In this document: positions 3,054 through 63,430 of the stretch, one piece after another | Numbering within the stretch: position 1 is the stretch's first letter | Layout: each line of letters begins with the position of its first letter | Assembly (NCBI RefSeq): GCF_046105845.1 | Contig: NZ_CP151004.1 | Direction: 5' to 3' (one strand) | Source: Escherichia coli | GTDB taxonomy: Bacteria > Pseudomonadota > Gammaproteobacteria > Enterobacterales > Enterobacteriaceae | Length of the DNA: 64,000 nt | Position numbers and translations under genes: made by a program | Notes under the pieces: model-generated | Seen by the model: only the letters and a program-made list of their open reading frames with translations | The model's database searches: none | What the model was told of the DNA's origin: nothing

Positions 3054-3971
3054 ATGTCTAAACGATTACCACCGCTAAATGCCTTACGAGTTTTTGATGC
3101 CGCAGCACGCCATTTAAGTTTCACTCGCGCAGCAGAAGAGCTTTTTGTGACCCAGGCCGCAGTAAGTCATCAAATCAAGTCTCTTGAGGATTTTCTGGGG
3201 CTAAAACTGTTCCGCCGCCGTAATCGTTCACTCCTGCTGACCGAGGAAGGTCAAAGCTATTTCCTCGATATCAAAGAGATATTTTCGCAATTAACCGAAG
3301 CGACGCGTAAACTCCAGGCCCGTAGCGCCAAGGGGGCGTTGACGGTCAGTTTACTCCCCAGTTTCGCCATTCATTGGTTGGTTCCGCGACTTTCCAGCTT
3401 TAATTCAGCTTATCCGGGAATTGACGTTCGAATCCAGGCGGTTGATCGTCAGGAAGATAAGCTGGCGGATGATGTTGATGTGGCGATATTTTATGGTCGG
3501 GGCAACTGGCCGGGGCTACGGGTGGAAAAACTGTACGCCGAGTATTTATTGCCGGTGTGTTCGCCGCTACTGCTGACTGGCGAAAAACCCTTGAAGACCC
3601 CGGAAGATCTGGCTAAACATACGTTATTACATGATGCGTCGCGTCGTGACTGGCAGACATATACTCGCCAATTGGGGTTAAATCATATCAACGTTCAGCA
3701 AGGGCCAATTTTTAGCCATAGCGCCATGGTGCTGCAAGCGGCTATTCACGGGCAGGGAGTGGCGCTGGCAAATAACGTGATGGCGCAATCTGAAATCGAG
3801 GCCGGACGTCTTGTTTGCCCGTTTAATGATGTTCTGGTCAGTAAAAATGCTTTTTATCTGGTTTGTCATGACAGTCAGGCAGAACTGGGTAAAATAGCCG
3901 CCTTTCGCCAATGGATCCTGGCGAAAGCCGCTGCTGAACAAGAAAAATTCCGCTTTCGTTATGAACAATAA
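3054..3971 (+). CDS. gcvA: LysR-family transcriptional regulator GcvA (glycine cleavage system activator)
   Basis: 305 aa; N-terminal LysR HTH (LRVFDAAARHLSFTRAAEELFVTQAAVSHQIKSLE). Confidence 0.9.
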   Translation: MSKRLPPLNALRVFDAAARHLSFTRAAEELFVTQAAVSHQIKSLEDFLGLKLFRRRNRSLLLTEEGQSYFLDIKEIFSQLTEATRKLQARSAKGALTVSLLPSFAIHWLVPRLSSFNSAYPGIDVRIQAVDRQEDKLADDVDVAIFYGRGNWPGLRVEKLYAEYLLPVCSPLLLTGEKPLKTPEDLAKHTLLHDASRRDWQTYTRQLGLNHINVQQGPIFSHSAMVLQAAIHGQGVALANNVMAQSEIEAGRLVCPFNDVLVSKNAFYLVCHDSQAELGKIAAFRQWILAKAAAEQEKFRFRYEQ

Positions 3972-21144: not shown

Positions 21145-21510
21145 GTCGACAGGGAGTCAGACAACGAAGTGAACATCAGGATGATGACACTTCTGAAGGA
21201 CACACCAGGATGGTGTTTCAGGGAAAGGCTTCTGGATGAAGCGAAGAGGATGACGCAGGACGCGTTAAAGGACACCTCCAGGATGGAGAATGAGAACCGG
21301 TCAGGATGATTCGGTGGGTCAGGAAGGCCAGGGACACTTCAGGATGAAGTATCACATCGGGGTGGTGTGAGCAGGAAGCAATAGTTCAGGATGAACGATT
21401 GGCCGCAAGGCCAGAGGAAAAGTTGTCAAGGATGAGCAGGGAGCAACAAAAGTAGCTGGAATGCTGCGAAACGAACCGGGAGCACTGTGAATACAGTGCT
21501 CCCTTTTTTT
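21145..21510 (+). ncRNA. csrB: CsrB, CsrA-sequestering small RNA
   Basis: Starts GTCGACAGGGAGTCAGACAACGAAGTGAACATCAGGATGATGACAC; many CAGGATG/AGGA motifs in predicted loops; ends with a terminator. Confidence 0.9.
21478..21510 (+). terminator. rho-independent terminator of csrB
   Basis: gggagcactgtgaatacagtgctccc hairpin followed by ttttttt. Confidence 0.8.
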
Positions 21511-21555
21511 ATTCCTGCTATCCTTCGCGGCAGTTTTTCTTATTGAGGTTGCTTT

Positions 21556-32026: not shown

Positions 32027-34261
32027 ATGGTTGCGGTAAGAAGTGCACATATCAATAAGGCTGGTGAATTTGATCCGGAAAAATGGATCGCAAGTCTGGG
32101 TATTACCAGCCAGAAGTCGTGTGAGTGCTTAGCCGAAACCTGGGCGTATTGTCTGCAACAGACGCAGGGGCATCCGGATGCCAGTCTGTTATTGTGGCGT
32201 GGTGTTGAGATGGTGGAGATCCTCTCGACATTAAGTATGGACATTGACACGCTGCGGGCGGCGCTGCTGTTCCCTCTGGCCGATGCCAACGTAGTCAGCG
32301 AAGATGTGCTGCGTGAGTGCGTCGGTAAGTCGGTCGTTAACCTTATTCACGGCGTGCGTGATATGGCGGCGATCCGCCAGCTGAAAGCGACGCATACCGA
32401 TTCTGTTTCCTCCGAACAGGTCGATAACGTTCGCCGGATGTTATTGGCGATGGTCGATGATTTTCGCTGCGTGGTCATCAAACTGGCGGAGCGTATTGCT
32501 CATCTGCGCGAAGTAAAAGACGCGCCGGAAGATGAACGCGTACTGGCGGCAAAAGAGTGCACCAATATCTACGCGCCGTTGGCGAACCGTCTTGGGATTG
32601 GACAACTGAAATGGGAGCTGGAAGATTACTGCTTCCGTTATCTCCACCCGACCGAATACAAACGCATCGCAAAACTGCTGCATGAACGCCGTCTCGACCG
32701 CGAACACTATATCGAAGAGTTTGTCGGCCATCTGCGCGCTGAGATGAAAGCTGAAGGCGTTAAAGCTGAAGTGTATGGTCGTCCGAAACACATCTACAGC
32801 ATCTGGCGCAAAATGCAGAAAAAGAACCTCGCCTTCGATGAGCTGTTTGATGTGCGTGCGGTACGTATTGTCGCCGAGCGTTTACAGGATTGTTATGCCG
32901 CACTGGGGATAGTGCACACTCACTATCGCCACCTGCCGGATGAGTTTGACGATTACGTCGCTAACCCGAAACCAAACGGTTATCAGTCTATTCATACCGT
33001 GGTTCTGGGACCAGGTGGCAAAACCGTAGAGATCCAAATCCGCACCAAACAGATGCATGAAGATGCAGAGTTGGGTGTTGCTGCGCACTGGAAATATAAA
33101 GAAGGCGCGGCAGCTGGCGGCGCACGTTCGGGACATGAAGACCGAATTGCCTGGCTGCGTAAACTGATTGCGTGGCAGGAAGAGATGGCTGATTCCGGCG
33201 AAATGCTCGACGAAGTACGCAGCCAGGTCTTTGACGACCGGGTGTACGTCTTTACGCCGAAAGGTGACGTCGTTGATTTGCCTGCGGGATCAACGCCGCT
33301 GGACTTCGCTTACCACATCCACAGTGATGTCGGACACCGCTGCATCGGGGCAAAAATAGGCGGGCGCATTGTGCCGTTCACCTACCAGCTGCAGATGGGC
33401 GACCAGATTGAAATTATTACCCAGAAACAGCCGAACCCCAGCCGTGACTGGTTAAACCCAAACCTCGGTTACGTCACAACCAGCCGTGGGCGTTCGAAAA
33501 TTCACGCCTGGTTCCGTAAACAGGACCGTGACAAAAACATTCTGGCTGGGCGGCAAATCCTTGACGACGAGCTGGAACATCTGGGGATCAGCCTGAAAGA
33601 AGCAGAAAAACATCTGCTGCCGCGTTACAACTTCAATGATGTCGACGAGTTGCTGGCGGCAATTGGTGGCGGGGATATCCGTCTCAATCAGATGGTGAAC
33701 TTCCTGCAATCGCAATTTAATAAGCCGAGTGCCGAAGAGCAGGACGCCGCCGCGCTGAAACAGCTTCAGCAAAAAAGCTATACGCCGCAAAACCGCAGTA
33801 AAGATAACGGTCGTGTGGTGGTTGAAGGTGTCGGTAACCTGATGCACCACATCGCGCGCTGCTGCCAGCCGATTCCTGGAGATGAGATTGTCGGCTTCAT
33901 TACCCAGGGACGCGGTATTTCAGTACACCGCGCCGATTGCGAACAACTGGCGGAACTGCGCTCCCATGCGCCAGAACGTATTGTTGATGCGGTATGGGGC
34001 GAGAGCTACTCCGCCGGATATTCGCTGGTGGTCCGCGTGGTGGCTAATGATCGTAGTGGGTTGTTACGTGATATCACGACCATTCTCGCCAACGAGAAGG
34101 TGAACGTACTTGGCGTTGCCAGCCGTAGCGACACCAAACAGCAACTGGCGACCATCGACATGACCATTGAGATTTACAACCTGCAAGTGCTGGGTCGCGT
34201 GCTGGGTAAACTTAACCAGGTGCCGGATGTTATCGACGCGCGTCGGTTGCACGGGAGTTAG
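32027..34261 (+). CDS. relA: GTP pyrophosphokinase RelA ((p)ppGpp synthetase I)
   Basis: 744 aa; RelA/SpoT synthetase domain and C-terminal TGS/ACT region. Confidence 0.95.
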   Translation: MVAVRSAHINKAGEFDPEKWIASLGITSQKSCECLAETWAYCLQQTQGHPDASLLLWRGVEMVEILSTLSMDIDTLRAALLFPLADANVVSEDVLRECVGKSVVNLIHGVRDMAAIRQLKATHTDSVSSEQVDNVRRMLLAMVDDFRCVVIKLAERIAHLREVKDAPEDERVLAAKECTNIYAPLANRLGIGQLKWELEDYCFRYLHPTEYKRIAKLLHERRLDREHYIEEFVGHLRAEMKAEGVKAEVYGRPKHIYSIWRKMQKKNLAFDELFDVRAVRIVAERLQDCYAALGIVHTHYRHLPDEFDDYVANPKPNGYQSIHTVVLGPGGKTVEIQIRTKQMHEDAELGVAAHWKYKEGAAAGGARSGHEDRIAWLRKLIAWQEEMADSGEMLDEVRSQVFDDRVYVFTPKGDVVDLPAGSTPLDFAYHIHSDVGHRCIGAKIGGRIVPFTYQLQMGDQIEIITQKQPNPSRDWLNPNLGYVTTSRGRSKIHAWFRKQDRDKNILAGRQILDDELEHLGISLKEAEKHLLPRYNFNDVDELLAAIGGGDIRLNQMVNFLQSQFNKPSAEEQDAAALKQLQQKSYTPQNRSKDNGRVVVEGVGNLMHHIARCCQPIPGDEIVGFITQGRGISVHRADCEQLAELRSHAPERIVDAVWGESYSAGYSLVVRVVANDRSGLLRDITTILANEKVNVLGVASRSDTKQQLATIDMTIEIYNLQVLGRVLGKLNQVPDVIDARRLHGS

Positions 34262-34338
34262 GCCGAAATTAGCTCGTATCTACAATGTAGATTGATATAT
34301 ACTGTATCTACATATGATAGCGGTTTGAGGAAAGGGTT
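34262..34338 (+). promoter_or_regulatory. mazEF promoter/operator with palindromes
   Basis: tctacaatgtagattgatatatactgtatctacatatgatag: ATCTACA...TGTAGAT inverted motifs immediately upstream of mazE; known MazE/MazF autoregulatory site. Confidence 0.6.
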
Positions 34339-34587
34339 ATGATCCACAGTAGCGTAAAGCGTTGGGGAAATTCACCGGCGGTGCGGATCCCGGCTACGTT
34401 AATGCAGGCGCTCAATCTGAATATTGATGATGAAGTGAAGATTGACCTGGTGGATGGCAAATTAATTATTGAGCCAGTACGTAAAGAGCCCGTATTTACG
34501 CTTGCTGAACTGGTCAACGACATCACGCCGGAAAACCTCCACGAGAATATCGACTGGGGGGAGCCGAAAGATAAGGAAGTCTGGTAA
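34339..34587 (+). CDS. mazE: antitoxin MazE (AbrB/SpoVT fold)
   Basis: 82 aa [27 protein letters not shown]; stop overlaps mazF ATG. Confidence 0.9.
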
Positions 34588-34922
34588 TGGTAAGCCGATA
34601 CGTACCCGATATGGGCGATCTGATTTGGGTTGATTTTGACCCGACAAAAGGTAGCGAGCAAGCCGGACATCGTCCGGCTGTTGTCCTGAGTCCGTTCATG
34701 TACAACAACAAAACAGGTATGTGTCTGTGTGTTCCTTGTACAACGCAATCAAAAGGATATCCGTTCGAAGTTGTTTTATCCGGTCAGGAACGTGATGGCG
34801 TAGCGTTAGCTGATCAGGTAAAAAGTATCGCCTGGCGGGCAAGAGGAGCAACGAAGAAAGGAACGGTTGCCCCAGAGGAATTACAGCTCATTAAAGCCAA
34901 AATTAACGTGCTGATTGGGTAG
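34587..34922 (+). CDS. mazF: mRNA interferase toxin MazF (ACA-specific endoribonuclease)
   Basis: 111 aa [35 protein letters not shown], PemK/MazF fold. Confidence 0.9.
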   Translation: MVSRYVPDMGDLIWVDFDPTKGSEQAGHRPAVVLSPFMYNNKTGMCLCVPCTTQSKGYPFEVVLSGQERDGVALADQVKSIAWRARGATKKGTVAPEELQLIKAKINVLIG

Positions 34923-34993
34923 GTGTTACTAACTCACTTCTATTCTGGTCACAGGTTTCCACCTGACAGACCCGCAATTTTCAGGACATTCTA

Positions 34994-35785
34994 ATGAATC
35001 AAATCGACCGTTTGCTCACTATTATGCAGCGCCTGCGCGATCCGGAAAATGGCTGCCCGTGGGATAAAGAGCAGACATTTGCCACCATTGCGCCTTACAC
35101 CCTTGAAGAAACCTACGAGGTGCTGGACGCCATCGCCCGTGAAGATTTTGACGATCTTCGCGGTGAACTGGGCGATCTGCTGTTCCAGGTGGTGTTTTAC
35201 GCACAAATGGCCCAGGAAGAAGGGCGCTTTGACTTTAATGATATTTGCGCCGCGATCAGCGATAAATTAGAACGTCGCCATCCGCATGTTTTTGCTGACA
35301 GTTCTGCCGAAAACAGTAGTGAAGTGCTTGCCCGTTGGGAGCAAATCAAAACCGAAGAGCGCGCGCAGAAAGCGCAGCATTCGGCGCTGGACGATATTCC
35401 TCGTAGTTTACCGGCTTTAATGCGTGCGCAAAAAATCCAGAAACGTTGCGCCAACGTTGGTTTTGACTGGACGACGCTTGGTCCGGTAGTCGATAAAGTC
35501 TACGAAGAGATCGACGAGGTGATGTACGAGGCACGGCAGGCTGTTATCGACCAGGCTAAACTGGAGGAGGAAATGGGCGACCTGCTGTTTGCCACGGTCA
35601 ATCTGGCTCGTCATTTAGGGACAAAAGCGGAAATCGCATTGCAAAAAGCGAACGAAAAATTCGAGCGTCGTTTTCGCGAAGTGGAGCGTATTGTTGCCGC
35701 GCGTGGACTGGAAATGACAGGTGTTGACCTCGAAACAATGGAAGAAGTCTGGCAACAGGTAAAACGGCAGGAAATTGATCTCTAA
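34994..35785 (+). CDS. mazG: nucleoside triphosphate pyrophosphohydrolase MazG
   Basis: 263 aa, tandem MazG domains (EETYEVLDAI...; EEIDEVMYEA...). Confidence 0.9.
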   Translation: MNQIDRLLTIMQRLRDPENGCPWDKEQTFATIAPYTLEETYEVLDAIAREDFDDLRGELGDLLFQVVFYAQMAQEEGRFDFNDICAAISDKLERRHPHVFADSSAENSSEVLARWEQIKTEERAQKAQHSALDDIPRSLPALMRAQKIQKRCANVGFDWTTLGPVVDKVYEEIDEVMYEARQAVIDQAKLEEEMGDLLFATVNLARHLGTKAEIALQKANEKFERRFREVERIVAARGLEMTGVDLETMEEVWQQVKRQEIDL

Positions 35786-41272: not shown

Positions 41273-42643
41273 GAGTTCCCCGCGCCAGCGGGGATAAACC
41301 GTTGTCCTGCTGAACCAAGTAAGCCACTGACAAGAGTTCCCCGCGCCAGCGGGGATAAACCGCATTATATCCTGTGCGTCGTTCATTTATTTACGAGTTC
41401 CCCGCGCCAGCGGGGATAAACCGGCCGCCGCATGGCAAAACAAACATCGGGGTACGAGTTCCCCGCGCCAGCGGGGATAAACCGGAACGGCGGCTATACG
41501 GATTCGACAGGTCAGCGAGTTCCCCGCGCCAGCGGGGATAAACCGGATTGAATGCAGATGGTTCAATGCTCGCATTCGAGTTCCCCGCGCCAGCGGGGAT
41601 AAACCGCCACGCGTGCTTTGAGTGGATGGTGTCGCTTGGAGTTCCCCGCGCCAGCGGGGATAAACCGATACATTATTAAGCGGGCAATTTTTCCAGTTTG
41701 AGTTCCCCGCGCCAGCGGGGATAAACCGAACGGCACGGCCTGCCGCCACGTCCCGCAGCTGAGTTCCCCGCGCCAGCGGGGATAAACCGGGGCCGTGTTT
41801 TCTAACGGATTCGCACATTGCGAGTTCCCCGCGCCAGCGGGGATAAACCGCAGCAGTTCAATACTGAAATCAACATGCCGATGAGTTCCCCGCGCCAGCG
41901 GGGATAAACCGCGCGGTGGGGTTTCATTCGCATCAATTCAAGGGAGTTCCCCGCGCCAGCGGGGATAAACCGGCGGTGAGTGAGAAAATCAGGACGGCTG
42001 CGAGGAGTTCCCCGCGCCAGCGGGGATAAACCGCGCCAAATATGCTGGTGGACTTCTACGCCGATGAGTTCCCCGCGCCAGCGGGGATAAACCGCTATCG
42101 ACGGTCAAGAAAATCCACCGGAAGAAGAGTTCCCCGCGCCAGCGGGGATAAACCGGCAGCAATATATTTGACATAATAGATAACCCGGAGTTCCCCGCGC
42201 CAGCGGGGATAAACCGACGCCAGGGGAGATATAACGCGCCTGTTATGGGAGTTCCCCGCGCCAGCGGGGATAAACCGGTCTTAACTAAAAGATGACCATT
42301 CAGTCGCAGGAGTTCCCCGCGCCAGCGGGGATAAACCGCGGCCCATAATATTAATATAATCCACATGAGGGAGTTCCCCGCGCCAGCGGGGATAAACCGC
42401 GCCGGAAATCATCGTTCTGTAATTGTCTAGCGAGTTCCCCGCGCCAGCGGGGATAAACCGCCCTGTTTGTTATTCCCATTATACGTATAAGAGAGTTCCC
42501 CGCGCCAGCGGGGATAAACCGCTTCTGGCTGGAGGTGGAGAAACGGAGGCAATGAGTTCCCCGCGTTAGCGGGGATAAACCGGATTTAGAGAGCCAGACG
42601 TTGGTCAGTTATTCGAGTTCCCCGCGTCAGCGGGGATAACCAT
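41273..42643 (+). CRISPR. Type I-E CRISPR array, 23 repeats / 22 spacers
   Basis: 29-bp repeat GAGTTCCCCGCGCCAGCGGGGATAAACCG recurs at exactly 61-bp period from 41273 to 42615; 32-bp unique spacers; repeat 22 has C>T (GCGTTAGCGGGG); terminal repeat degenerate (GCGTCAGCGGGGATAACCA). Confidence 0.97.
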
Positions 42644-58482: not shown

Positions 58483-58840
58483 ATATTGCCGGATAAATTA
58501 AACGCCTCTGTCAGAAATGATGGGGGCGTTTTTATTTTGCGAGCAGCATTCCTGATTTTAAACGTGAACGCCGCTGGAAGAATCAACAGGTATATAATGG
58601 TGTCGGGTGCTTGAGGCTGTCTGGCGTTAAGCATTCGCGAGGTTCCAGATGGACAAAAGCCCCAGGCGATATTTCTATCAACCTGAGGCCAGCGTTCGAA
58701 CCCAAACAATTCGAATGTTAGTCTCTTCTTTGCAGGGAGGCAAGACATGTGTATATCACTGTAATTCGATATTTATGAGCAGCATCGAAAAATAGTCCAC
58801 TGATATCATCGATAATACTAAAAAAACAGGGAGGCTATTA

Positions 58841-61507
58841 ATGGAACCTTTTAAATATATATGTCATTACTGGGGGAAATCCTCAAAAAGCCTGACGAAA
58901 GGAAATGATATTCATCTGTTGATTTATCATTGCCTGGATGTTGCAGCTGTTGCAGATTGCTGGTGGGATCAATCAGTCGTACTACAAAATGCTTTTTGCC
59001 GAAATGAAATGCTATCAAAACAGAAGGTGAAAGCCTGGCTGTTATTTTTCATTGCCCTTCATGATATCGGAAAGTTTGATATACGATTCCAATATAAATC
59101 AGCAGAAAGTTGGCTGAAATTAAATCCTGCAACGCCATCACTTAATGGTCCATCAACACAAATGTGCCGTAAATTTAATCATGGTGCAGCCGGTCTGTAT
59201 TGGTTTAACCAGGATTCACTTTCAGAGCAATCTCCCGGGGATTTTTTCAGTTTTTTTGATGCCGCTCCTCATCCTTATGAGTCCTGGTTTCCATGGGTAG
59301 AGGCCGTTACAGGACATCATGGTTTTATATTACATTCCCAGGATCAAGATAAGTCGCGTTGGGAAATGCCAGCTTCTCTGGCATCTTATGCTGCGCAAGA
59401 TAAACAGGCTCGTGAGGAGTGGATATCTGTACTCGAAGCATTATTTTTAACGCCAGCTGGGTTATCTATAAACGATATACCACCTGATTGTTCATCACTG
59501 TTAGCAGGTTTTTGCTCGCTTGCTGACTGGTTAGGTTCCTGGACCACAACGGATACCTTTCTATTCAAAGAAGATGCACCTTCAGGCATACAAGCGCTAA
59601 GAACATATTTTCAGTATAGACAACAGGATGCGTGTCGGGTACTGGAGTTGAGTGGCCTTGTATCAAATAAGCGTAGTTATGACGGCGTACATGCCTTACT
59701 GGACAATGGCTATCAACCAAGACAATTACAGGTGTTGGTTGATGCTCTTCCTACAGCTCCCGGGCTGACGGTGATTGAGGCACCTACGGGATCAGGTAAA
59801 ACCGAAACAGCGCTGGCCTATGCCTGGAAACTTATTGACCAACAACTTGCGGAGAGTGTTATTTTTGCCCTCCCTACACAAGCTACTGCAAATGCAATGC
59901 TCAGTAGAATGGAAGCGAACGCGAGCCGTTTATTTACCTCCCCAAATCTTATTCTTGCTCATGGTAATTCACGTTTTAACCACCTTTTTCAATCAATAAA
60001 ATCACGCGCATTTACTGAGCAGGGGCAAGAAGAAGCATGGGTTCAGTGTTGCCAATGGTTGTCACAAAGTAATAAGAAAGTGTTTCTAGGGCAAATAGGC
60101 GTTTGCACGATTGATCAGGTATTGATATCGGTATTGCCAGTTAAACATCGCTTTATCCGTGGTTTGGGAATTGGTCGAAGTATTTTAATTGTTGATGAAG
60201 TTCATGCTTACGACACGTATATGAACGGCTTGCTGGAGGCTGTGCTCAAGGCTCAGGCTGATGTGGGAGGGAGTGTTATTCTTCTTTCCGCAACTCTACC
60301 AATGAAACAAAAACAGAAACTTCTGGATACTTATGGTCTGCATACAGATCCAGAGGAAAATAACTCCGCATATCCACTCATTAACTGGCGAGGTGTGAAT
60401 GGTGCACAACGTTTTGATCTGTTAGCTCATCCAGAACAACTCCCGCCCCGCTTTTCGATTCGGCCAGAACCTATTTATTTAGCTGACATGTTACCTGACC
60501 TTAGGATGTTAGAGCGAATGATCGCAGCGGCAAATGCGGGTGCACAAGTCTGTCTTATCTGCAATTTGGTTGATGTTGCACAACTATGCCACCAACGGTT
60601 AAAGGAACTAAATAACACGCAAGTAGATATAGATTTGTTTCATGCGCGCTTTACGCTGAACGATCGTCGTGAAAAAGAGAATCGAGTTATTAGCAATTTC
60701 GGCAAAAATGGGAAGCGAAATGTTGGACGGATACTTGTCGCCACCCAGGTCGTGGAACAATCACTCGACGTTGATTTTGATTGGTTAATTACTCAGCATT
60801 GCCCCGCAGATTTACTTTTCCAACGATTGGGCCGTTTACATCGCCATCATCGCAAATATCGTCCCGCTGGTTTTGAGGTTCCTCTTGCCACCGTTTTGCT
60901 GCCTGATGGCGAAGGTTACGGACGACATGAGCATATTTATAGCAACGTTAGAGTCATGTGGCGGACGCAGCAACATATTGAGGAACTTAATGGAGCATCC
61001 TTATTTTTCCCCGATGCCTACCGGCAATGGCTGGATAGCATTTACGATGATGCTGAAATGGATGAGCCAGAATGGGTCATCAAAGGCATGGATAAGTTTG
61101 AAAGCGCTGAGTGTGAAAAGAGGTTCAAGGCTCGCAAGGTTCTGCAGTGGGCTGAAGAATATAGCTTGCAGGATAACGATGAAACAATTCTTGCGGTAAC
61201 GAGGGATGGGGAAATGAGCCTGCCATTATTGCCTTATTTACAAACGTCTTCAGGTAAACAACTGCTCGATGGCCAGGTCTACGAGGACCTAAGTCATGAA
61301 CAGCAGTATGAGGCGTTAGCACTTAATCGCGTCAATGTACCCTTCACCTGGAAACGTAATTTTTCTGAAGTAGTAGATGAAGATGGGTTACTTTGGCTGG
61401 AAGGGAAACAGAATCAGAATGGATGGATCTGGCAGGGTAATAATATTGTTATTACCTACACTCGGGATGAAGGGATGACCAGAGTCATCCCTGCAAATCC
61501 CAAATAA
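58841..61507 (+). CDS. cas3: CRISPR-associated nuclease/helicase Cas3 (type I-E)
   Basis: 888 aa; HD nuclease motif (FIALHDIGKFD), SF2 helicase Walker A (EAPTGSGKTETAL) and DEAH-type box (LIVDEVHAYD). Confidence 0.95.
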   Translation: MEPFKYICHYWGKSSKSLTKGNDIHLLIYHCLDVAAVADCWWDQSVVLQNAFCRNEMLSKQKVKAWLLFFIALHDIGKFDIRFQYKSAESWLKLNPATPSLNGPSTQMCRKFNHGAAGLYWFNQDSLSEQSPGDFFSFFDAAPHPYESWFPWVEAVTGHHGFILHSQDQDKSRWEMPASLASYAAQDKQAREEWISVLEALFLTPAGLSINDIPPDCSSLLAGFCSLADWLGSWTTTDTFLFKEDAPSGIQALRTYFQYRQQDACRVLELSGLVSNKRSYDGVHALLDNGYQPRQLQVLVDALPTAPGLTVIEAPTGSGKTETALAYAWKLIDQQLAESVIFALPTQATANAMLSRMEANASRLFTSPNLILAHGNSRFNHLFQSIKSRAFTEQGQEEAWVQCCQWLSQSNKKVFLGQIGVCTIDQVLISVLPVKHRFIRGLGIGRSILIVDEVHAYDTYMNGLLEAVLKAQADVGGSVILLSATLPMKQKQKLLDTYGLHTDPEENNSAYPLINWRGVNGAQRFDLLAHPEQLPPRFSIRPEPIYLADMLPDLRMLERMIAAANAGAQVCLICNLVDVAQLCHQRLKELNNTQVDIDLFHARFTLNDRREKENRVISNFGKNGKRNVGRILVATQVVEQSLDVDFDWLITQHCPADLLFQRLGRLHRHHRKYRPAGFEVPLATVLLPDGEGYGRHEHIYSNVRVMWRTQQHIEELNGASLFFPDAYRQWLDSIYDDAEMDEPEWVIKGMDKFESAECEKRFKARKVLQWAEEYSLQDNDETILAVTRDGEMSLPLLPYLQTSSGKQLLDGQVYEDLSHEQQYEALALNRVNVPFTWKRNFSEVVDEDGLLWLEGKQNQNGWIWQGNNIVITYTRDEGMTRVIPANPK

Positions 61508-61921
61508 CTTCGGGAATGATTGGTATCAATGACGATAACAAGACCAATAACGGTTTATCCCTACTTAAGTAGGGAAGGTGCACAATGTACATCTTCTTTT
61601 AATTTCCCGGTATGAGATTTTATATTCACAGTATGAATATTTTATGTAATAAAATTCATGGTGATTATTATAACTAAAAATTTCTTTGATAATAAAACGA
61701 ATAACTTGCAGATTTGAAATGCATGCATTATTGTCTTTAAACAATTCAACACATCTTAATATATGCATAGGTTAATTGTATTAAACCAATGGATATATTT
61801 TTGCAGTGAATGTGATTATTGAATTAATTACGCCGTATTTTTTCTTTGTTTTTACCGATAACGGAAGTGTGCCGACGTATAGAAATGCAGGAGAAATGTC
61901 GGAGCATATGAAGGAGAACAA
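61508..61921 (+). promoter_or_regulatory. cas3-cse1 intergenic region containing the Cascade operon promoter (Pcas)
   Basis: 414 bp, strongly AT-rich, non-coding, directly upstream of cse1; in E. coli K-12 this region is H-NS-silenced and LeuO-activated (established knowledge; exact promoter elements not mapped here). Confidence 0.6.
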
Positions 61922-63430
61922 ATGAATTTGCTTATTGATAACTGGATCCCTGTACGCCCGCGAAACGGGGGGAAAGTCCAAATCATAAATCTGCAATCGC
62001 TATACTGCAGTAGAGATCAGTGGCGATTAAGTTTGCCCCGTGACGATATGGAACTGGCCGCTTTAGCACTGCTGGTTTGCATTGGGCAAATTATCGCCCC
62101 GGCAAAAGATGACGTTGAATTTCGACATCGCATAATGAATCCGCTCACTGAAGATGAGTTTCAACAACTCATCGCGCCGTGGATAGATATGTTCTACCTT
62201 AATCACGCAGAACATCCCTTTATGCAGACCAAAGGTGTCAAAGCAAATGATGTGACTCCAATGGAAAAACTGTTGGCTGGGGTAAGCGGCGCGACGAATT
62301 GTGCATTTGTCAATCAACCGGGGCAGGGTGAAGCATTATGTGGTGGATGCACTGCGATTGCGTTATTCAACCAGGCGAATCAGGCACCTGGTTTTGGTGG
62401 TGGCTTTAAAAGCGGTTTACGTGGAGGAACACCTATAACCACCTTCGTATGTGGGATCGATCTTCGCTCGACGGTGTTACTCAATGTCCTCACAATACCT
62501 CGTCTTCAAAAACAATTTCCCAATGAATCAAATACGGAAAACCAACCTACCTGGATTAAGCCTGTCAAGCCCAATGAATCTGTGCCAGCTTCGTCAATTG
62601 GGTTTGTCCGTGGCTTATTCTGGCAACCAGCGCATATTGAATTATGCGATCCCATTGGGATTGGTAAATGTTCTTGCTGTGGACAGGAAAGCAATTTGCG
62701 TTATACAGGTTTTCTTAAGGAAAAATTTACCTTTACAGTTAATGGGCTATGGCCCCATCCGCATTCCCCTTGTCTGGTAACAGTCAAGAAAGGGGAGGTT
62801 GAGGAAAAATTTCTTGCTTTCACCACCTCCGCACCATCATGGACACAAATCAGCCGAGTTGTGGTAGATAAGATTATTCAAAATGAAAATGGAAATCGCG
62901 TGGCGGCGGTTGTGAATCAATTCAGAAATATTGCGCCGCAAAGTCCTCTTGAATTGATTATGGGGGGATATCGTAATAATCAAGCATCTATTCTTGAACG
63001 GCGTCATGATGTGTTGATGTTTAATCAGGGGTGGCAACAATACGGCAATGTGATAAACGAAATAGTGACTGTTGGTTTGGGATATAAAACAGCCTTACGC
63101 AAGGCGTTATATACCTTTGCAGAAGGGTTTAAAAATAAAGACTTCAAAGGGGCCGGAGTCTCTGTTCATGAGACTGCAGAAAGGCATTTCTATCGACAGA
63201 GTGAATTATTAATTCCCGATGTACTGGCGAATATTAATTTTTCCCAAGCTGATGAGGTAATAGCTGATCTACGAGACAAACTTCATCAATTGTGTGAAAT
63301 GCTATTTAATCAATCTGTAGCTCCCTATGCACATCATCCTAAATTAATAAGCACATTAGCGCTTGCCCGCGCCACGCTATACAAACATTTACGGGAGTTA
63401 AAACCGCAAGGAGGGTCATCAAATGGCTGA
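61922..63430 (+). CDS. casA: Cascade large subunit Cse1 (CasA, Cas8e)
   Basis: 502 aa MNLLIDNWIPVRPRNGGKVQIINLQSLYCSRDQWRLSLPRDD, recognised as E. coli Cse1. Confidence 0.95.
   Translation: MNLLIDNWIPVRPRNGGKVQIINLQSLYCSRDQWRLSLPRDDMELAALALLVCIGQIIAPAKDDVEFRHRIMNPLTEDEFQQLIAPWIDMFYLNHAEHPFMQTKGVKANDVTPMEKLLAGVSGATNCAFVNQPGQGEALCGGCTAIALFNQANQAPGFGGGFKSGLRGGTPITTFVCGIDLRSTVLLNVLTIPRLQKQFPNESNTENQPTWIKPVKPNESVPASSIGFVRGLFWQPAHIELCDPIGIGKCSCCGQESNLRYTGFLKEKFTFTVNGLWPHPHSPCLVTVKKGEVEEKFLAFTTSAPSWTQISRVVVDKIIQNENGNRVAAVVNQFRNIAPQSPLELIMGGYRNNQASILERRHDVLMFNQGWQQYGNVINEIVTVGLGYKTALRKALYTFAEGFKNKDFKGAGVSVHETAERHFYRQSELLIPDVLANINFSQADEVIADLRDKLHQLCEMLFNQSVAPYAHHPKLISTLALARATLYKHLRELKPQGGSSNG

Follow-up and report, generated by a model that had tools for sequence, protein, structure and literature searches.

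At positions 34262–34922 of the window, by which we mean the whole 64,000-nucleotide stretch of Escherichia coli DNA that was analysed, the toxin–antitoxin (TA) pair mazE and mazF lies between relA and mazG. The mazEF module was the first chromosomal TA system to be described and remains one of the most thoroughly studied. The features of the locus are as follows:

32027–34261, plus strand: relA (GTP diphosphokinase, 744 aa), the upstream core gene; flanking context, outside the cassette
34228–34627, minus strand: antisense RNA aMEF (putative), position carried over from the K-12 annotation (b4844)
34262–34959, plus strand: the mazEF cassette taken as an indel, 698 nt, from alignment with the mazEF-less allele of E. 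coli PK8261
34273–34322, plus strand: the mazEF operator 'cab' with three sites for MazE dimers; exact match to the published oligonucleotide
34339–34587, plus strand: mazE antitoxin, 82 aa; PF04014, NF007312, identity to PDB and K-12 proteins
34587–34922, plus strand: mazF toxin, 111 aa; PF02452, NF007386, identity to PDB and K-12 proteins
34994–35785, plus strand: mazG (nucleoside triphosphate pyrophosphohydrolase, 263 aa), the downstream core gene and presumed ancestral neighbour of relA

The sequence-only reading from which this analysis started had placed the module directly after relA, with a 1-bp overlap between the mazE stop and the mazF start and with mazG about 70 bp downstream, and the coordinates bear this out. 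relA ends at 34261 and mazE starts at 34339; the junction reads TAATG at 34585–34589, where the mazE stop codon TAA (34585–34587) and the mazF ATG (34587–34589) have one nucleotide in common; and the measured gap between mazF and mazG is 71 nt. The relA–mazE spacer is 77 nt and the whole relA–mazG spacer 732 nt. Shine–Dalgarno sequences are found ahead of both genes, GAGG (34327–34330) for mazE and AAGGAAG (34574–34580) for mazF, and in the list of open reading frames (ORFs) mazG is followed by pyrG. A 146-aa ORF on the minus strand (34308–34748), which runs across mazE and mazF and is unannotated in all matching genomes, was taken as spurious antisense.

The identity of the two proteins was examined by HMM search and by comparison of the MazF catalytic residues with the E. 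coli protein, as the earlier reading had proposed. MazE scores 52.9 bits against PF04014 (MazE_antitoxin; cut-off 24.7) and 196.2 bits against the NCBIfam equivalog NF007312 (cut-off 113). MazF scores 84.8 bits against PF02452 (PemK_toxin; cut-off 23.1) and 227.4 bits against the equivalog NF007386 (cut-off 120), with residues 1–111 of 111 covered, so that both proteins lie above the curated Pfam and NCBIfam equivalog cut-offs. All 111 residues of MazF are the same as in PDB entries 3NFC and 5CK9/5CR2 (100% identity), and all 82 residues of MazE align with PDB 1MVF chain D at 100%; 1UB4 chain C gives a near-equal score over MazE residues 1–82. Further, both proteins are 100% identical to those of E. 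coli K-12 MG1655. In E. coli MazF, Arg29 is the general acid/base and Thr52 the stabilising residue (PMC8887465), and the usual inactive mutant is E24A (PMC5888573). All three active-site residues (E24, R29 and T52) are kept in the 111-aa ORF. A frameshift or an active-site loss in mazF, either of which the earlier reading had named as fatal to its claim, was looked for by alignment, and neither was found. From its complete identity to the characterised protein, MazF of this strain would be an ACA-specific, ribosome-independent RNase. MazE is predicted to consist of an N-terminal AbrB/SpoVT-type domain for DNA and a disordered C-terminal tail for MazF. The flanking genes are equally well identified: RelA scores 1676.7 bits against the NCBIfam equivalog NF008124 and carries the Pfam domains HD_4, RelA_SpoT, TGS and ACT, relA also being the annotation in matching genomes, and MazG matches TIGR00444 (419 bits), NF007113 (370 bits) and PF03819.

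The operator is identical to DNA that has been studied biochemically. A 50-nt operator oligonucleotide termed 'cab', used in MazE binding studies (Zorzini et al. 2015, PMC4333400), has an exact match at 34273–34322, and the inverted ATCTACA/TGTAGAT motifs that had been noticed ahead of mazE are present inside it. ATCTACA occurs at 34278–34284 and 34306–34312 and its complement TGTAGAT at 34286–34292. A repeat finder set the first ATCTACA (34278–34284) opposite TGTAGAT (34286–34292), and set ATGTAGAT (34285–34292) opposite ATCTACAT (34306–34313). There is also a direct repeat, GTATCTACA, at 34276 and 34304, with an ATATAT palindrome in the centre. Because of this arrangement of the repeats, the middle arm has two possible pairing partners, the arm upstream of it and the arm downstream, an 'alternating palindrome'. 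Site c of the operator starts at 34276 (GTATCTACAATGTAGATTG), site a occupies 34292–34305 (TTGATATATACTGT, which contains the ATATAT palindrome) and site b spans the second GTATCTACA at 34304–34312. Over both strands of the 64-kb window ATCTACA is found at chance level, five times against 4.7 expected, and three of these five occurrences fall within 35 bp at the mazEF operator.

Other transcription signals were less clear. A simple sigma-70 scan gave no convincing promoter at the operator and did not recover the published promoters; its output was a weak ATGATA/TATGAT pair over the mazE start codon and one within mazE, at chance frequency. In the mazF–mazG spacer, a terminator scan and RNA folding brought out no significant structure (z = -0.05), and for this reason no terminator is claimed between the two genes.

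The description of the module as a classic type II TA system is upheld by the equivalog HMMs, the complete identity to K-12 and PDB proteins, the catalytic residues and the exact operator. The operon has the arrangement of its class, namely small, adjacent and co-oriented genes, the antitoxin first, a 1-nt overlap and a palindromic operator. Judged by its sequence, the region is almost certainly the canonical E. coli chromosomal mazEF (chpA) cassette of type II, intact and presumably functional. This identification is already known in full detail, and there is nothing new in the gene pair.

One element of the locus, the antisense RNA aMEF, went unmentioned in the earlier reading. The K-12 annotation places the ncRNA ameF (b4844) at 2911051–2911450 (400 nt); transferred to the window, it covers the first 41 nt of mazF, the whole of mazE and the operator, and it extends 34 nt into the end of relA. 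As this stretch is collinear with K-12, with no indels across it, the same aMEF would be expected here. In a search against Rfam no family was found across the mazEF region; aMEF itself is absent from Rfam. In published work, aMEF modulates the expression of mazE and mazF (PMC8749433).

How the module would work can be drawn from characterised proteins identical to those in the window (PMC5888573, PMC4333400, PMC1626106, PMC8749433). Two translationally coupled genes, overlapping by 1 nt and each with its own Shine–Dalgarno sequence, would give MazE and MazF. MazF would act as a dimeric endoribonuclease of the CcdB/PemK fold, cutting single-stranded RNA at ACA by means of Arg29 and Thr52. With its disordered C-terminal tails, one MazE dimer would hold two MazF dimers and block their active sites, and MazE, its affinity raised by MazF, would occupy the three operator sites and repress its own promoter. 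MazE would be turned over by ClpAP and Lon, such that any block in synthesis would release MazF. MazF could also cut its own mRNA at ACA sites, and aMEF would tune the expression of both genes. The window has two ACA sites in mazE and eight in mazF, compared with the two and nine reported for K-12 (PMC5888573). The physiological role of chromosomal mazEF is disputed in the literature, with programmed death, reversible stasis, persistence, phage exclusion and selfish maintenance among the proposals (10.1101/048728, PMC7167474).

The closest described relative is mazEF of E. coli K-12 (chpAI/chpAK; b2783/b2782), which has the same MazE and MazF proteins, the same operator, the same 1-nt overlap and the same 77-nt distance from relA, and lies in the same gene order (relA–mazE–mazF–mazG–pyrG–eno). 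Over 732 nt the two loci differ at 12 positions (98.4% identity), and each difference is either silent or intergenic. One of these, a silent change from ACA to ACG at position 34865, has removed one of the nine ACA self-cleavage sites of mazF, and the mazF–mazG spacer is 71 nt in the window as against 70 nt in K-12. With E. coli strain 2012C-4221, the 732-nt relA–mazG spacer shares 100% DNA identity.

The cassette is not present throughout the species. Annotated mazE and mazF are present in 4415 of 5426 complete E. coli genomes, and every full-length match to the spacer is annotated mazE/mazF. The other allele is an 'empty' relA–mazG junction without mazEF, found in 1007 of the 5426 (~19%, against 81% with the cassette). 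UTI89 is one such mazEF-less strain, in which relA and mazG form an undisturbed operon (Fraikin et al. 2020, PMC7167474). In the empty allele of E. coli PK8261 (3448–3542 of the compared locus), the flanks are identical to those of the window and a 95-nt spacer with a hairpin separates relA from mazG, whereas the window has 732 nt with mazEF. Alleles with and without mazEF have in common the relA end and the 34 nt immediately ahead of mazG; between these, the 698 nt at 34262–34959 stand in place of 61 nt of the empty allele. No target-site duplications or repeats are evident at the cassette borders in this alignment. The GC content of the cassette is 46.6%, compared with 53.7% for relA and 51.0% for mazG.

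The 61 nt that the cassette replaces fold into a strong 12-bp hairpin with a U-rich stretch behind it (z = -4.55). It is conceivable, if doubtful, that by removing this hairpin, possibly a relA terminator or attenuator, the insertion of mazEF left lineages with and without the module differing in read-through from relA into mazG. Were this true, loss of the hairpin would alter nucleotide and ppGpp housekeeping, and a core operon would be affected as a by-product of TA insertion, not through the function of the toxin.

The relA–mazG junction was also surveyed in other species. Loci were collected with a degenerate DNA pattern for the RelA C-terminus NQVPDVIDARR, which has one match in the window, so that the survey covers genomes encoding exactly this peptide. 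The resulting 111 loci come from species-representative genomes, nearly all of them Enterobacteriaceae, and include Escherichia albertii, E. whittamii, Citrobacter, Klebsiella, Enterobacter and Kluyvera, as well as Salmonella enterica subsp. arizonae and diarizonae. Homologues of MazE or MazF were found nowhere in these 111 relA loci (0/111). The mazG start could be located in 101 of the 111, at a median of 76 nt past the relA stop and within 150 nt in 96 of the 101. As mazG follows so closely behind relA in loci that are without mazEF, the adjacency of relA and mazG would be ancestral and mazEF a lineage-restricted insertion.

The larger relA–mazG gaps were checked for other TA pairs and carry instead a ~110-aa membrane ORF or a fimbrial operon. 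In Klebsiella spallanzanii the spacer holds a chaperone–usher fimbrial operon, and those of Superficieibacter electus and Klebsiella oxytoca hold related, membrane-protein-like ORFs of ~110 aa. A parDE insertion between relA and mazG has been reported for Salmonella (PMC7167474); neither of the Salmonella subspecies in the set (arizonae and diarizonae) showed it. Such insertions in other species suggest that the relA–mazG spacer is a permissive insertion site. Two matches of the survey pattern are probably contamination: an assembly of Chryseobacterium sp. 18061 with an enterobacterial relA end and mazG on a contig, and a 496-nt contig of Myxococcus llanfairpwll... with an enterobacterial relA end.

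Homologues are also found on plasmids. MazEF pairs on plasmids of Pantoea, Rahnella, Pectobacteriaceae, Citrobacter and Providencia have a full-length MazF with 71–73% identity and an adjoining AbrB/MazE/SpoVT antitoxin; they do not lie between relA and mazG and are too divergent to have been the direct donor. A PLSDB record with a mazF of 98.2% identity (NZ_OL790696.1, a 4.8-Mb 'plasmid') appears from its size to be an E. coli chromosome that was deposited among the plasmids. A prophage origin is unsupported: in the phage collection searched there was no close homologue of MazF, the best match being that of Pantoea phage G19 at 51% identity. The E. coli chpB pair (ChpBS/ChpBK) and the parD/pem systems of R1/R100 (Kis/Kid, PemI/PemK) share the PemK/MazF fold, an AbrB-type antitoxin and the antitoxin-first order. 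However, all of these are only distant paralogues: on the window proteins the ChpB models fall far short of their cut-offs (55 against 129 bits for the toxin and 35 against 101 for the antitoxin), and Kid matches the window MazF at E = 7.6e-9. The locus belongs to neither subfamily.

Taken with the empty junctions in E. coli, the absence from all 111 surveyed loci, the lower GC content than the flanks and the plasmid homologues at 71–73% identity, we infer that mazEF is an accessory, horizontally acquired insertion of ~700 nt in an ancestral relA–mazG spacer. The direction of the indel is read from the outgroups, and the gain probably took place within the E. coli lineage. The accessory status of mazEF has already been stated in a review (PMC7167474); the present counts of presence and absence give numbers to the reviews' qualitative statements.

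This distribution bears directly on an alternative view of the locus, which the sequence-only reading had adopted in linking the module to (p)ppGpp control on the grounds that it follows relA. In the model of Aizenman and Engelberg-Kulka, mazEF is wired to the stringent response: (p)ppGpp made by RelA stops mazEF transcription, MazE decays, MazF brings about programmed cell death or stasis, and MazG moderates ppGpp. The positions fit such a scheme, with mazEF beginning 77 nt past relA and ending 71 nt before mazG and with an unstructured mazF–mazG spacer (z = -0.05) that is compatible with read-through, and published work describes a relA–mazEFG operon as well as a P2 promoter repressed in a ppGpp-dependent manner (PMC1626106, PMC8749433). 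However, mazG stands next to relA with no mazEF in 1007 of 5426 E. coli genomes, and likewise in all 101 Enterobacteriaceae loci with a locatable mazG start (at 150 nt or less in 96), and mazEF possesses an autoregulated operator–promoter of its own. Further, degradation of MazE on starvation has been reported to be ppGpp-independent and the claims about ppGpp are mutually contradictory (PMC7167474); the strains behind the work on ppGpp and programmed cell death were relA-defective and not isogenic (bioRxiv 10.1101/048728); and mazEF is held to have 'no functional link' with the neighbouring cistrons, i.e. relA or mazG (Fraikin et al. 2020, PMC7167474). Since the adjacency of relA and mazG exists without mazEF across strains and species, linkage to relA is optional and recent, neither conserved nor required. 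Behind relA the module is missing from all 111 surveyed loci as well as from 1007 of 5426 E. coli genomes, which does not fit a place in the stringent-response regulon argued from conserved relA linkage. With the junction empty in so many genomes, mazEF found in 0/111 Enterobacteriaceae loci and the literature in dispute, the claim of (p)ppGpp control by position did not stand; the place after relA is in itself no evidence for it, and wiring of mazEF to the stringent response is unlikely. We infer instead that the position of mazEF reflects a permissive insertion site rather than a designed coupling to the stringent response.

The proximity of mazEF to a CRISPR locus has invited another reading. 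A type I-E CRISPR array lies at 41273–42643 on the plus strand, made of 21 perfect and two degenerate terminal copies of the repeat GAGTTCCCCGCGCCAGCGGGGATAAACCG (23 repeats), with an AT-rich leader upstream of the first repeat (41273). Counted from the mazF stop, the first repeat is ~6.35 kb away; counted from the mazE start, ~6.9 kb. The distance of about 7 kb given earlier for the CRISPR leader is therefore acceptable, but it carries no functional signal, with six unrelated genes standing between. These are mazG, pyrG, eno, ygcG, a small frameshifted ORF (yqcG in K-12) and queE, and the order from mazG to queE is standard in all E. coli examined. At this site strain 2012C-4221 has an array of just 273 nt, far shorter than that of the window. 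Towards the end of the window lie the type I-E genes cas3 (58841–61507, plus strand; 888 aa, with Cas3_HD and helicase domains) and cse1/casA (61922–63430, plus strand; 502 aa).

On these grounds mazEF could be taken to form a defence neighbourhood with CRISPR, in which it would work alongside CRISPR-Cas in abortive infection or against phages. A limiting effect of mazEF on some phages has been reported, and the 23-repeat array from 41273 and the cas3 and cse1 genes at 58841–63430 are undoubtedly there. An accessory module of CRISPR-Cas would be expected to adjoin the array or the cas operon, yet ~6.4 kb and six unrelated genes, arranged as is standard for E. coli, lie between the array and mazEF, and the presence or absence of mazEF is a local indel within the relA–mazG spacer. 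Nor do MazE, MazF and MazG match any defence model in PADLOC-DB v2 (0 matches at E <= 0.01), a result that concerns that catalogue and not anti-phage effects as such. A partnership with CRISPR-Cas is thus highly improbable; the proximity looks like coincidence, and nearness to the array is here a matter of synteny, not of association.

Finally, although chromosomal TA loci often decay and one silent change has dropped one of the nine mazF ACA self-cleavage sites, the reading of mazEF as a decayed remnant (a pseudogenised toxin or an orphan antitoxin) has next to no chance of being right and is refuted at the sequence level by two full-length ORFs identical to the functional K-12 proteins, an identical operator and intact catalytic residues.

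Elsewhere in the window, a match to the sok antitoxin RNA (Rfam RF01794, 103.7 bits) lies at 58605–58761 on the plus strand, just upstream of cas3. As this match denotes a type I, hok/sok-like TA locus, the window has a second TA system, unrelated to mazEF. Two small RNAs were also found, CsrB at 21154–21513 on the plus strand (382.9 bits) and GcvB at 2720–2925 on the minus strand (199 bits).
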